From an uncultured delta proteobacterium (GTDB taxonomy: Bacteria > Desulfobacterota > Desulfobacteria > Desulfobacterales > Desulfosalsimonadaceae), in assembly GCA_963826785.1 (NCBI GenBank), contig CAWGYD010000001.1:544001-608000 (forward strand): a stretch of 64,000 nt of DNA, given 5' to 3'. The translations under genes and the position numbers were made by a program. Within the stretch, counting starts at the first letter, position 1; every line of letters begins with the position of its first letter. The notes under the pieces were generated by a model that saw nothing but the letters and a program-made list of their open reading frames with translations, had not been told where the DNA came from and searched no databases. Below are positions 31,490-47,159 of the stretch, piece by piece.

Positions 31490-33265
31490 CTAATCCTGTT
31501 TGAAATTGCGGTTCAGGAGCGAACCGTAGCGGTCGTTGATGAGCTCGATGATGGATTCGGTGGTGGACAGCTTAAGGGCCTGCCGGACCAGGGATTCGGA
31601 TTCATCCACCCGGATCTTGCGGATCATGTCCTTGATGCCCGGAATCGACTGGGGCGCCATGCTCAGTTCATCGATGCCCAGGCCGATGAGTATGGGCAGG
31701 TTGATCGGCTCCGATGCCATTTCGCCGCACATGAACGTCTTGATCTTTTTTTCCCGGCCGGCATCCACCACGTGCCGGATCATCCGGATCACCGCGGGAT
31801 GAAGCGGATTGTAAAGATAGGCCACATGGCGGTTGACCCGGTCGATGGCCAGGGTGTACTGGACCAGGTCGTTGGTCCCGATACTGAAAAAATCGACCAG
31901 TTCGGCCATTTCCCCGGCCATGATCACCGCCGAAGGGACTTCGATCATGATGCCGATCTGAACGTCCTGCCCGCATTCCAGACCCTCCCGGCGTAAGCCT
32001 GCGCGGCCTCGGCGATGATTTTTTTTGTCTGGTGGATCTCCTCGCATCCCGAGATCATGGGCAGCAGCATCCGGACCGGATCCATGGGCCGCCGCTCTGA
32101 GGATGGCCCGGATCTGGGTCGTAAATATTTCGGGCTTTCTCAGGCAGAAGCGGATCGCGCGGAGGCCCAGGGCCGGATTGGCTTCCTCCGGGGTGGGAAC
32201 GGCCGAAATTTCCTTGTCGCCGTTGATATCCAGGGTCCGGATGGTCACCGGGTGGGGCGCCATCAGTTCCACCACCTCCCGGTAATGATTGAACAGCTCC
32301 TGTTCGTCGGGGAAACTGGTCCGTCCCATGTACTGAAACTCGGTTCGAAACAGGCCGATGCCGTCCCCGCCGTGATCCCTGACCGCCACGATTTCTTCGG
32401 GCCGCTCGATATTGCCCATCACCTGAAACAGCCGCCCGTCCGCGCTGGTGGCCGGGTAGAACCCGATCCTGAGTATATCCGCTTTGTGGGCCTCGTAGCG
32501 TTTTCCAAGATCGCTGTACTTGATGAGCGTTTCGTCCTCCGGGTTGATGATGACGATGCCCGCGGTGCCGTCGACGATGATGATGTCGCCGTTGCCGATC
32601 ATCCGGGTGGCGCTGTCAAGGCCCAGTACCGCCGGGATCTCCAGGGTGCGGGCGATGATGCTGGTGTGGGAGGCCACCCCGCCCCGGTCGGTGATGAACC
32701 CCATGATCTTTTCCAGTTGGATCTGGCTGGTTTCGGCCGGCGACAGGCTGTGCGCCACCAGGATGACCCGCTTGTCGATATTGGAGATGTTGATGTCCTT
32801 GAACCCGGTGAGATTGCACATGATGCGGTCCGATACGTGCTCGATATCGGCCGAGCGGCTCCTCAGATAGGGATCGGCGATGTTGTTGAAAATGGATTTG
32901 GCCTGGAAAGTCGCCTCCTTGAGCGCCCATTCCGCATTCACCCGCTCCGTTTTGATGATATTGATGGTCTTTTCATAGAGCATCTTATCCTTGTGAAGCA
33001 GCATGTGCGTCTCGAGGATGGATGCCTGCTGGCGGAGGTCTTCGGGCAGATCGGCGATGATCTGTGCCAGTTCGCTTTTGGCCTTGCAGACCGCCTGCTT
33101 GAAGCGGTTGACCTCTTTGGTGGCCTGATCTTTGGGGATGTGATATTTTTCAATGACATCGACGCCTTCCTTGTCCACCAGGTAGGCCCTGCCGATGCAT
33201 ATGCCGGGGGATCCGCTGATTCCCTTCAAGATCATTTCACTGGTTTCGGCTGAAGCCATCAGCAT
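31490..33265 (-). CDS. ptsI: PTS enzyme I, with a compensated frameshift pair at ~32082 and ~31998
   Basis: GGVASHTSIIAR (phospho-His), GIGLFRTEF, EEANPALGLRAIR, MIEVPSA, SIGTNDLVQY, MCGEMA. The conserved VRMLLPMI segment lies in another frame. Confidence 0.93.
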   Translation of the reverse strand: MLMASAETSEMILKGISGSPGICIGRAYLVDKEGVDVIEKYHIPKDQATKEVNRFKQAVCKAKSELAQIIADLPEDLRQQASILETHMLLHKDKMLYEKTINIIKTERVNAEWALKEATFQAKSIFNNIADPYLRSRSADIEHVSDRIMCNLTGFKDINISNIDKRVILVAHSLSPAETSQIQLEKIMGFITDRGGVASHTSIIARTLEIPAVLGLDSATRMIGNGDIIIVDGTAGIVIINPEDETLIKYSDLGKRYEAHKADILRIGFYPATSADGRLFQVMGNIERPEEIVAVRDHGGDGIGLFRTEFQYMGRTSFPDEQELFNHYREVVELMAPHPVTIRTLDINGDKEISAVPTPEEANPALGLRAIRFCLRKPEIFTTQIRAILRAAAHGSGPDAAAHDLGMRGDPPDKKNHRRGRAGLRREGLECGQDVQIGIMIEVPSAVIMAGEMAELVDFFSIGTNDLVQYTLAIDRVNRHVAYLYNPLHPAVIRMIRHVVDAGREKKIKTFMCGEMASEPINLPILIGLGIDELSMAPQSIPGIKDMIRKIRVDESESLVRQALKLSTTESIIELINDRYGSLLNRNFKQD

Positions 33266-33266
33266 C

Positions 33267-33548
33267 TCACTCCCCGAATCCTCTTTCAAATAAATCGATG
33301 ATGTCATCTAAAATATCCATATCCGCGGGATCGTCAATCTGCAGGGTCACCTGCGTGCCCTTCAGGCAGGCAGTGGACAAAATATCGATAATGCTGGAGG
33401 CGTCCACCCGCTGATCGTCATTGATCAGCCAGATATTGGATTTCGCTTTCAGTGCCCGCTCGGCGATCATCGCTGCGGGCCGGGCGTGGAGGCCCAATTC
33501 ATTGATCACGATGGCGTTTCTGGTCAATCTTTTATCTAACCCATCCAT
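33267..33548 (-). CDS. ptsH: HPr phosphocarrier
   Basis: INELGLHARPA (His15), VDASSIIDIL (Ser46 region), FERGFGE. Confidence 0.9.
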   Translation of the reverse strand: MDGLDKRLTRNAIVINELGLHARPAAMIAERALKAKSNIWLINDDQRVDASSIIDILSTACLKGTQVTLQIDDPADMDILDDIIDLFERGFGE

Positions 33549-33733
33549 TTTAAAAGATATAGTTTTGTATAAAACTTTAAAAAAGTAACACGTTGGGCCC
33601 AAATTTGTCAAACTAAATCATTGACAACCCGAGGGGTGACTGCTATTTACGAAAAAATCATTTCTTTTACAACCTGCTGATTTTATATTTAGAAACTTTT
33701 TATAAATCGGGTAATTCGCCTAAGATGCCGATC

Positions 33734-33961
33734 ATGACGCAAAAAGTCCACATATTCGGTAAAATGACCTGACCTTTCACCCGGGCGGCCCGTGAGGCCT
33801 ACTCCAAGCGTGGGATTGAGTGCGAATTTGTCGACGTGCTGGCCAGCGCCGAAAACCTGGCGCAGATGCTGGCCTGTTCCGGCGGTCAGCGCAAGATTCC
33901 GGTGATTGTCGATGGCGATGAGGTGATCATCGGGTTCAACGGCCGGGGGTGACGGGTCTGA
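33734..33961 (+). CDS. Glutaredoxin-like putative selenoprotein with two in-frame UGA codons (UPFT and C-terminal URV*)
   Basis: MTQKVHIFGKMT-U-PFTRAAREAYSKRGIECEFVDVLASAENLAQMLACSGGQRKIPVIVDGDEVIIGFNGRG-U-RV*. TGA at 33770 and 33950, each followed by a hairpin; TGA TAG at 33959-33964. Confidence 0.82.
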
Positions 33962-34046
33962 TAGACCGGCGGTCCGCCGGTCGCGCATTTGACTGCCGAT
34001 CCCTGCATTTGATGACATATTTTCTCTGATACAGGAAAAAGCAATT

Positions 34047-34703
34047 ATGGAAAGACAATACATCATCGACGAAATGGGGCTGAGCGAGTCCTGGCGGCTG
34101 TTTAAAATCATGGGCGAATTTGTCGACGGGGTCGAGGCCCTGCACGAACTCGGCCCGGCAGTGAGCATCTTCGGTTCCGCCCGGGTGCCCAAAGAACATC
34201 CGTATTATAAAAAGACGGAGGAAATCGCCGGGATGCTGGCGGAAAACGGGCTGGCCGTGATTACCGGCGGGGGCGGCGGCATCATGGAGGCGGCGAACAA
34301 GGGGGCCGCGGAAAAAGGGGGCAAATCGGTGGGGCTGAACATCGTTTTGCCCATGGAGCAGAAACCCAACCCCTATGCCAATATCGGGCTGCAGTTCAAT
34401 TATTTCTTCGTGCGCAAGGTCATGTTCGTCAAGTATGCGGTTGCCTACATCATCATGCCGGGCGGAATCGGGACATTGGATGAACTCTTCGAGGCCGTCA
34501 CCCTGATTCAGACCCACCGGATCAAACCCCTTCCCGTGATCCTCTATGATACGGAATACTGGTCCGGGCTGATCAAGTGGATCAAGGCCCGGCTGCTTGA
34601 AAATAAGATGATCTCCGCAGATGACCTGGACATCATCACCATGACCGATGATCCGCAGAAAATTTTAAAAATCGTCAAGAGCGCCGCCCGTCTGACGGCC
34701 TGA
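34047..34703 (+). CDS. LOG-family (TIGR00730) nucleotide phosphoribohydrolase
   Basis: SIFGSAR, ITGGGGGIMEAANKGA, YFFVRKVMF, PGGIGTLDE. Confidence 0.92.
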   Translation: MERQYIIDEMGLSESWRLFKIMGEFVDGVEALHELGPAVSIFGSARVPKEHPYYKKTEEIAGMLAENGLAVITGGGGGIMEAANKGAAEKGGKSVGLNIVLPMEQKPNPYANIGLQFNYFFVRKVMFVKYAVAYIIMPGGIGTLDELFEAVTLIQTHRIKPLPVILYDTEYWSGLIKWIKARLLENKMISADDLDIITMTDDPQKILKIVKSAARLTA

Positions 34704-45394: not shown

Positions 45395-47159
45395 TTAGAA
45401 CAGGCCGGATACCTTTCCGGTGGCCGGATCCACGTCGATTCTTCTGAAGGCCGGGTTGGAACCGGTTCCGGGCATCAGGCTGATGGTGCCTGCGCAGGGG
45501 CAGAGGAACTTCGCGCCGGAGTAGATGAGCACGTCGCGGATGGGCAGCCGCCATCCCTTGGGAACGCCCTTCTTGACCGGGTCGTGGGTCAGGGAAAGGT
45601 GGGTCTTGACCATCATGGTGGCAAAGTCGGCATACTTGGGATCTTTTTCCAGCATTTCGGCTTTGGCGTTGGCATCCGGTGCCCAGTCCACACCATCGGC
45701 GCCGTAAACTTCCTTGGCAATCAATTCCACGCGGTCGCGCAGCTTCATTTCCAGCGGATAGAGGAATTTGAAATCGTTTCCCTCTTCGCAGGCATCGATA
45801 ACCGCGTCGGCGAATTCCAGCGCGCCCTCGCCGCCTTTTTCCCAATGTTTGGACTCGGCGCAGCGGGCGCCGGCCGCTTCGGCAGCCTTCTTCACCAAGG
45901 CCACTTCCGCATCGGTGTCGGTGTAGAAACGGTTGATGCAGACCACCGGGTTGATGCCGGATTTGCGGATCACGCCGATCATGTGGACCATGTTTTCGCA
46001 GCCTTTCTCCACCAGGCTTGAGATTCTCCTTGGTGTAGGCTTCGTCAAGGGCCTTGCCCGCAACGACCTTGGGTCCGCCGCCGTGCATCTTCAGGGCGCG
46101 GATGGTGGCGGTCAGAATGGAGACATGGGGTTTTAAGCCGGAGAAGCGGCATTTCACGTTCCAGAATTTTTCAAATCCGATGTCTGCGGCAAATCCGGAT
46201 TCGGTGACGTGGTAATCCCAGAGTTTCAGGCCCACGCGGTCTGCGATAATCGAGCTCTGGCCCACGGCGATGTTGGCAAACGGGCCGGCATGCACCAGGC
46301 AGGGCTGATATTCGGCCGTGCTCATGAGGGTGGGGTTGATGGTGTTGCGCATAAAGGCCGCCATGGCATTTCCCACTTCGAGATCACGGCAGGTCACCGG
46401 TTTGCCGCTCTTGTCGAAAGCCACGGTGATATTGTTGATGCGCTCTTTCAGGTCGGCAAGATCCGTGGCCACGGCCAGGATGGCCATCAACTCGGAGCCC
46501 ACGGCGATGCCGAATTTGGACTGCATGGTGTAGCCGTCGGTGCGGCCGCCCAGGCCGATGACGATGTTTCTGAGCGCCTGGGCGCAGAAGTCGATGATCC
46601 AGCCCATTTCCACGCGGGTGGGGTCGATGTCGAGGCGGCGCATGCCGGTCAAGCGGGCCAGCTGCTCATCGTTGTAGTTTCTTTCATGCTGCATGCGGGC
46701 GGTCATGGCCACCATGCCCAGGTTGTGGGCGTTCATGATGTCGTTGATGTCGCCGGTAAGTCCCAGGGAGAATTCGGTCATGGGGATCAGCAGGGAGTTT
46801 CCGCCGCCGGCTGCGGTTCCTTTGACGTTCATGGTGGGGCCGCCGGAGGGCTGGCGCAGGGCACCGCCCACGCTTTTGCCCCGGGCGCCCAGGCCTTCCA
46901 TCAGGCCCAGCGATGTGGTGCTTTTGCCTTCACCCAGCGGAGTGGGGGTGATGGCGGTCACTTCGATGTATTTCCCGTCCGGTTTGTCTTTCAGACGGTT
47001 GATGACTTTCAGAAAGTCGATTTTGGACAGCCGGCCCATCGCCAGCATTTCTTCGGGCTCGAGTCCCAGCTTTTCTCTCCACGCTTCCGGCATGGGCATG
47101 TTCTTTTCCGCTTCTTCGGAAATCTGCCAGTCGGCCATTTTGGTTGCATCAAAAGCCAT
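45395..47159 (-). CDS. fhs: Formate-tetrahydrofolate ligase, one frameshift at ~46019
   Basis: [54 protein letters not shown]-terminus [10 protein letters not shown]...LMPG in ORF 45395..46063. Confidence 0.95.

Follow-up and report, generated by a model that had tools for sequence, protein, structure and literature searches.

A table in a 2026 review lists, as 'Distant Grx-like protein 1', a protein family (NCBIfam NF041114) with the motif UxxT and two selenocysteine (Sec) residues (PMC13188914), and the same family, with UxxT, figures in a list within a 2022 review (PMC9312934). A section of the 2026 review also states the rule for bacterial SECIS elements (bSECIS), in which one of the first two loop positions is a G, the loop lies 16-37 nt behind the UGA and the stem has 4-16 bp (PMC13188914). 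Regarding glutaredoxins, one passage describes members in which a Cys at the start of helix 3 bonds the active-site Cys and is reduced by thioredoxin and not by glutathione (PMC13621322), and another notes a hydrogen bond between the VP-motif valine and the backbone of the cysteine in bound glutathione (PMC11724882).

The gene analyzed here lies in a window of 64,000 nucleotides, the whole stretch of DNA under study, at positions 33734..33961 of the + strand. Reading from the ATG at 33734 with TGA taken as Sec gives a protein of 75 amino acids plus stop, with a glutaredoxin/NrdH fold that lacks the usual C-terminal helix. The first TGA (33770..33772, +) is codon 13 and begins the motif U13-P-F-T16 (UxxT); it occupies the catalytic first-Cys position of the glutaredoxin motif and aligns with the first Cys of solved glutaredoxins. 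The second TGA (33950..33952, +) is codon 73, three residues from the C-terminus, and is followed by Arg, Val and the true stop (33959..33964, +; TGA at 33959, then TAG at 33962), which gives the ending UXX-stop. Both placements agree with the original prediction, which had put the TGA at 33770 at the first Cys of the motif and the TGA at 33950 ahead of two codons and a stop. Ile55 and Pro56 (33896..33901, +) form the cis-Pro loop of the thioredoxin fold, the predicted partner of the tail, with a cis geometry that the fold suggests. Met1, Thr16 and Pro56 are invariant in the family alignment, in which the start codon was taken as the nearest ATG or GTG 10-16 codons upstream of the first TGA. 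The gene is absent from the table-11 ORF list of the window (minimum 70 aa), so it had indeed been missed by the ORF track, as first claimed. A word-indexed protein search returned only 2 matches, probably because gene callers truncate such genes at the UGAs. No site passed in a promoter and terminator scan. At 33621-33649 (+), about 85 nt upstream of the start, there is a perfect -35 hexamer with a near-consensus -10 sequence 17 nt on, a pair that failed the rule of the promoter scan.

As predicted, the gene is situated between ptsH and a LOG gene. On one side is the divergent ptsH gene (HPr; 33267..33611, -), followed by ptsI, and on the other a TIGR00730/LOG-family gene in the same orientation (34047..34703, +), 85 nt after the stop. 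Both neighbors reflect lineage synteny only: of 111 loci, 17 have ptsH/ptsI next to the gene and 22 have the LOG-family gene there, mostly loci of this order. The neighbors in other clades are unrelated (ndk, RNase HII, chaperonin, sensors and hydrogenase maturation, with 100 of 133 neighbor ORFs scanned), and no family-wide partner gene was found across the 111 loci and these 100 ORFs. A functional link to ptsH or LOG, based on synteny confined to one lineage, is therefore unsupported. The ptsI gene itself (31490-33307, -) has a stretch near residues 410-445 that looks out of frame and matches a relative's protein in two frames, likely due to compensating assembly indels.

Profile scores place the gene product in the catalogued family. 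With Sec entered as Cys it scored 97.2 bits against NF041114.2, the model for 'UXX-star selenoprotein family 1' (cut-off 72), covering positions 1-70 of the 70 in the profile; scores for the parent subfamily Uxx-star (NF041212; 80.5 bits, cut-off 66) and for Pfam Glutaredoxin (37.7 bits, cut-off 22.9) were also above threshold. It fell below the cut-offs of family 2 (NF041211; 57.5 bits against 100), family 3 (NF047338; 45.2 against 97) and the HUGP/GUXX-star fusion (NF045501; 41.9 against 325), with all of which, as with NF041212, it shares the C-terminal UXX-stop. A CxxC active site is absent, position 16 being an invariant Thr, and GRX_bact (30.8 bits against 90) and GlrX_NrdH (25.3 against 85.75) remained under their cut-offs as well. 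The resemblance to UXX-star proteins that the original prediction had noted is thus a true membership, evident from the NF041114 score, the UxxT motif and the UXX-stop tail. Accordingly, the gene is a new member of an already catalogued two-Sec glutaredoxin-like family, and at the family level nothing about it differs: it exceeds the cut-off across the whole model and has UxxT and two Sec. Within family 1 this copy belongs to a longer subtype, with 60 codons between the UGAs compared to 55 in a paralog of the same genome, and its tail is Gly-Sec-Arg-Val where Thr/Ser-Sec-Gly-Val is commoner. That paralog, a second UXX-star family 1 gene (G000:C6:222691-222888, -; loci L019/L046; 107.7 bits), is of the short subtype, has 70 aa and two TGAs, and is intact. 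Of 61 genomes from the same family and order, 34 have a match above the NF041114 cut-off.

Conservation of the two TGAs was analyzed in three sets of loci. The close homologs comprise 31 of 37 over-cut-off matches that were inspected, namely the window and 30 other loci, one of them a same-genome paralog. All 31 have TGA at both sites, and this, together with the Pfam Glutaredoxin and NF041114 scores, confirms that the proposed 75-codon glutaredoxin-like frame is real. In these loci the pair of codons that follows the second TGA is conserved, with synonymous variation (Gly 21, Arg 9, Lys 1, then Val 26, Ile 4, Ala 1), and the codon three after it is TGA in 16, TAA in 10 and TAG in 5. GTDB genomes were also scanned with a pattern that demands Cys at site 13, which yielded 119 confirmed loci, 80 of which were kept. 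Their tail site is TGA in 77 (two of these assigned by eye), Cys in one (L148), Ser in one (L138) and unrecognizable in one (L133), and the stop codon of the 77 is TGA in 41, TAA in 18 and TAG in 18. Finally, a search with a profile that favors neither Cys nor Sec produced matches in 54 of 201 genomes of the phylum; the best 30 of the 58 matches, the window gene and a repeat of L035 among them, consist of 26 Sec/Sec and 4 Cys/Sec loci. When the sets were pooled (138 of 139 loci parsed), sites 13/73 were Sec/Sec in 55, Cys/Sec in 80, Cys/Ser in 2 (one being the degenerate L133), Cys/Cys in 1 and Sec/Cys in 0; selection for Cys in one set inflates the pooled ratio, but has no bearing on the lack of Sec/Cys among the 55 Sec13 loci. 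Site 73 is TGA in 135 of the 138 parsed loci and never TAA or TAG, and site 13 is Cys in 83. As the original prediction anticipated, homologs thus carry Cys or TGA at both positions, Cys13 in 80 loci and Cys73 in L148 plus 13 database proteins. Changes between Cys and Sec at site 13 amount to at least 3 switches forced by well-supported branches and to 15 by parsimony on a quick tree of weak resolution, in which 12 of 135 branches have good support. Judged by these sequences, both UGAs likely encode selenocysteine, and the tail Sec73 is the more fixed of the two, site 13 flipping between Cys and Sec. The Ser codon of L138 is TCA, one base from TGA. The quick tree groups L138 and L148, both Cys13 homologs without a tail Sec, in one small clade that may represent a lineage in which Sec was lost.

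Tail composition over the 138 loci (Gly 115, Thr/Ser 122, Sec 135, Gly 104, Val 120) shows that the tail of the window gene departs from the consensus on both sides of Sec73, with Gly in place of Thr/Ser before it and Arg in place of Gly after it. Database proteins were also compared: the best 150 representatives gave 94 Cys motifs, 16 TGA read-through artefacts, 36 unparsed entries and 4 that were too long. Among these best 150, the 57 CxxT/S/A proteins include 13 with a tail Cys, 38 that end at the presumed Sec, as taken from protein records, and 6 with neither, and the 37 CxxC proteins include 30 with a long Cys-free tail and 7 that end at the presumed Sec; proteins of both types are related, and the counts are not independent. 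Since 7 CxxC proteins also end at the presumed Sec, it would be too simple to see the tail Sec as a substitute for the absent second Cys.

The original prediction also placed a hairpin behind each TGA. The second, for Sec73 (33964..33982, +; loop 33971-33975), stands as described. It is located in the 3' untranslated region, its loop lies 18 nt after the UGA and begins with G, and it folds alone at z -2.22. Across the 31 loci 72.8% of its cells are paired, with 35 double changes, a level that 0 of 500 shuffles attained; after a slide by one column pairing is still 57.6%, since loop lengths vary. A simple hairpin scan, tuned on the 31 Sec13 loci, was positive after the second TGA in 30 of these 31 and in 75 of 77 Cys13 loci, compared to 1243 of 7968 (15.6%) arbitrary TGAs. 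The same scan detected no tail hairpin in the Cys/Cys locus L148.

The first hairpin, on the other hand, had been mis-drawn. In the register 33775-33797 the loop would lie 13 nt after the UGA, outside the 16-37 nt rule, and this register is unconserved (pairing in 53% of cells, a level reached by 380 of 500 shuffles). The conserved hairpin for Sec13 is at 33787..33799 (+) and has a 4-bp stem and a 5-nt loop (33791-33795) within Ala-Ala-Arg-Glu-Ala codons. It has G at loop position 2, the loop is 18 nt after the UGA, and it is 86% paired with a covariation of 0.307, a value reached by 0 of 500 shuffles. Its three core pairs are held in 31 of 31 Sec13 loci but in only 14 of 80 Cys13 loci, the latter being drawn from other taxa than the Sec13 set, and core pairing is missing in 7 of 26 Sec13 loci of the phylum sample. 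As a single sequence the region folds no better than shuffles (z +0.59 and +0.79), and support for this hairpin is therefore purely comparative. Under a rule of MFE <= -7.5, the second hairpin (-16.2) and the 40-nt region of the first (-8.7) pass, but the 4-bp stem of the first alone (-6.7) fails. Both hairpins fit the bSECIS rule for loop G and distance, each with its loop 18 nt after its UGA. Together, the family score, the conservation of both TGAs and the conserved hairpins at both sites support the proposal of a di-Sec glutaredoxin-like protein.

Of the Sec machinery that the original prediction named for checking (selA, selB, selC and selD), part was recovered in this assembly, which is 87.8% complete. 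The tRNA-Sec gene (selC) is present (75.4 bits, cut-off 47; also found by ARAGORN), and selA is present in two frames (G000:C3:45278-46644; L001/L002) with a frameshift near 45850 that is likely an assembly indel. No match was obtained in this 87.8%-complete assembly for selB, selD or selU. Among 61 related genomes selB occurs in 53, selD in 55 and selA in 56, and 46 of 47 high-quality relatives have selB. We took 20 regions around selB or selD from same-family genomes for comparison of neighbors; the genes that recur there, which from their sequences we take to be purM, tsaD, gmk and uvrA, also lacked a tblastn match in this assembly among the rows listed. Moreover, nine other Sec codons are intact, in four MvhD-type and five HdrA-type genes that have TGA at a Cys position and a hairpin behind it. 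Because these housekeeping neighbors are missing too and the other Sec codons are intact, the absence of selB and selD is likely an assembly gap, and the selB/selD region is probably unassembled in this genome. None of the outcomes that the original prediction had named as counter-evidence was seen: homologs have Cys or TGA at both sites, the codons between the second TGA and the stop are conserved, and tRNA-Sec, selA and other selenoprotein genes are present. Frameshifts were found in 3 of 44 other orthologues of this assembly and in 3 of 14 genes of a smaller set to which selA, ptsI and a yedF-like gene belong, which fits with assembly indels. The gene that we assume from its sequence to be yedF-like is frameshifted at G000:C5:321736-323589, where it is divergent from a presumed LysR-type regulator; selD is not adjacent here, and a yedF-like gene follows selD in 3 of 6 loci of relatives. 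HdrA and MvhD paralogs are numerous on G000 C1, C4, C6 and C8, and the Sec of the MvhD proteins is found at two different Cys positions. ARAGORN also reported a second, unusually long (96 nt) tRNA-Trp(CCA) at G000:C1:229358-229453, which by position may be outside the window.

A structural model of the protein was obtained with AlphaFold2, using Cys for Sec and a 31-row alignment. The predicted fold is a glutaredoxin core of four strands and two helices that lacks a third helix; it is of the thioredoxin type, with the cis-Pro loop at the invariant Pro56. Mean pLDDT was 90.5, and the tail block 71-75 was ordered (mean 88). The best matches in a fold search with this predicted model were cGrx1 (7c10; Z 9.7, rmsd 1.9, 67 aligned residues), NrdH (1h75; Z 9.6, rmsd 1.7, 66 aligned) and 3ic4 (Z 9.4), and Foldseek gave the same top matches (glutaredoxins and NrdH). 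Strand or bridge assignments in the full model are at 54-55, 68, 71 and 73-74; those at 54-55 and 68 were lost in a control model of residues 1-70. In the model, then, the partners of the tail are the residues immediately ahead of Pro56, the 54-55/73-74 pairing being deduced from the secondary-structure strings of the two AlphaFold2 models.

By these predictions the protein shares with NrdH-redoxin and the bacterial dithiol glutaredoxins (1h75, 7c10, 3ic4) the same fold over residues 2-70 (Z 9.4-9.7, rmsd 1.7-1.9), the cis-Pro loop and the first-Cys position. Unlike them, it has Thr16 for the second Cys and a 7-residue Sec tail that replaces the last helix, and it scores below all their NCBIfam cut-offs. 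A likeness in arrangement exists with mammalian thioredoxin reductase, which has a C-terminal Gly-Cys-Sec-Gly arm and a SECIS beyond the stop codon: in both, Sec is at the extreme C-terminus on a Gly-rich arm and the SECIS is past the stop. The folds are unrelated, however, and no flavin is involved here, so that this is an analogy only. In Chlamydomonas GRX3 and Arabidopsis GRXS16 and GRXS12, a residue beyond the last strand forms a pair with the one in the active site (PMC13621322), as we propose for the present protein. These three have their Cys within a helix of a glutathione-binding protein, whereas the Sec considered here is on a free tail, five or six residues past a conserved Gly.

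With confidence somewhat above even, we favor a model in which Sec13 and Sec73 would form an internal redox pair, the tail lying in the glutathione groove and the selenium of the tail being the working end of a glutathione-independent protein. According to the predicted structure, the short tail would occupy the glutathione groove and pair backbone to backbone with the residue before the cis-Pro, and Sec73 would be at the site of glutathione's cysteine, facing Sec13. The pair could then cycle between free selenols and a Se-Se bond, or a Se-S bond in the Cys13 homologs. When exposed, the tail selenol would likely attack an outside substrate, such as a protein disulfide, a persulfide or a peroxide, and residue 13 would subsequently resolve the bond between tail selenol and substrate. 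Thioredoxin and ferredoxin:disulfide reductase are candidate reductants. A subunit of the latter is encoded in 56 of the 61 related genomes, including this one, where a CxxC glutaredoxin adjoins the catalytic subunit (G000:C5:273272-273783). This locus is a candidate electron source, although the presence of a CxxC glutaredoxin right beside the reductase counts against the proposal. In keeping with independence from glutathione, none of the 61 related genomes gave a glutathione synthetase match above the cut-off. On the other side, full-length matches resembling glutathione synthetase, at 238-256 bits compared to a cut-off of 299, occur in 12 of the 61, among them 6 of the 34 carriers of the gene. 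The model also draws on the way motif and tail complement each other in the database proteins and on the Gly found behind the Sec in 104 of 138 loci. Against it count the divergent tail of this protein, the 7 CxxC proteins that end at the presumed Sec, the Sec13 loci without core pairing in the first hairpin, the absence of selB and selD and the split selA in this assembly, and the finding that in the loci scanned no neighbor shared across the family points to a substrate.

More tentatively, and with rather more doubt than belief, the model may be extended to the family: UXX-star proteins would be glutaredoxins that carry their own glutathione, a Thr/Ser-Sec-Gly tail that replaces helix 3, docks like the Cys-Gly of glutathione and pairs (Se-Se or Se-S) with the active site. 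This idea was not found in the literature searched, which did not cover Haft and Tolstoy 2025. The prediction that the tail acts as glutathione is possibly new, and is the only element of this analysis that may be so, as the family, the motif and the two Sec are already in print.

Other readings accept that both UGAs encode Sec but differ on what the residues do. It is unlikely, in our view, that the pair is a metal or metalloid site (Hg, As, Cu or Fe-S) instead of a redox shuttle. The invariant cis-Pro and the lack of recurring metal-resistance neighbors in the loci scanned argue against such a site, even though a TerB neighbor was seen in 1 of 42 loci, the predicted closeness of residues 13 and 73 would equally suit two-coordinate metal binding and the 2026 review states that the Sec of UXX-star proteins may be metal-binding ligands or bind unknown substrates (PMC13188914). 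Metals are also suggested by one database protein, P0027, in which an ArsR/SmtB regulator (86.8 bits against a cut-off of 55) is fused to a Uxx-star domain (73.2 bits against 66). The linker between the two domains of P0027 contains a Cys, and P0039 and P0081 look like related N-terminally extended forms. Classical roles for the same redox pair, in which Sec13 attacks the substrate and Sec73 only resolves, overlap with our proposal, the sole difference being the selenium that engages the substrate. In their favor, residue 13 stands where the canonical nucleophile is found, and the tail, by prediction, takes the place of the resolving glutathione. Yet the tail retains its selenium in 135 of 138 loci and position 13 has often lost it (Cys in 83 of 138), and a docked tail would block the substrate groove, which makes this assignment quite improbable. 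The original prediction had likewise suggested that the tail Sec could act as a resolving, or else a metal-binding, residue. With Cys13/Sec73 in 80 of 138 loci and Sec13/Cys73 in 0 of 138, the appearance of the tail Sec is more that of an essential selenium than that of an accessory resolving residue.

Two further explanations deny one or both UGAs their decoding as Sec. That the gene is a relic, with the Sec machinery being lost and both UGAs acting as stops in this genome, would account for the failure to find selB, selD and selU and for selA being in two frames. Nevertheless, we regard it as very improbable: the assembly is 87.8% complete, genes flanking selB/selD in same-family genomes are unmatched too, frameshifts also affect 3 of 44 other orthologues and ptsI, selB is found in 46 of 47 high-quality relatives, and tRNA-Sec, the nine other Sec codons with their hairpins and the second di-UGA paralog are all intact. 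The missing flanking genes and the nine intact Sec codons thus largely reject a loss of the Sec machinery. Scarcely credible is the idea that only the first UGA is Sec and the second a stop, giving a 72-residue monothiol protein. Gene callers do end Cys13 homologs at the second TGA, as expected under either reading, but in 138 loci this TGA is never TAA or TAG while the codon three later varies, the two intervening codons vary synonymously, a covarying hairpin follows at SECIS distance, and Cys takes the place of the second TGA in L148 and 13 database proteins.

The gene is ordinary for its clade, in which 34 of 61 related genomes carry the family, and since the family is catalogued its value at this level is that of an annotation fix. 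It also lends itself to reporter assays of Sec insertion in bacteria where the SECIS is located past the stop codon, and L148, a natural Cys/Cys homolog, would make an easy model for recombinant work. Combined with the one-way Cys13/Sec73 pattern, the predicted placement of the tail in the groove provides a concrete, testable mechanism on a protein of 75 residues. If true, this would be a self-contained, glutathione-independent redox shuttle for anaerobes.
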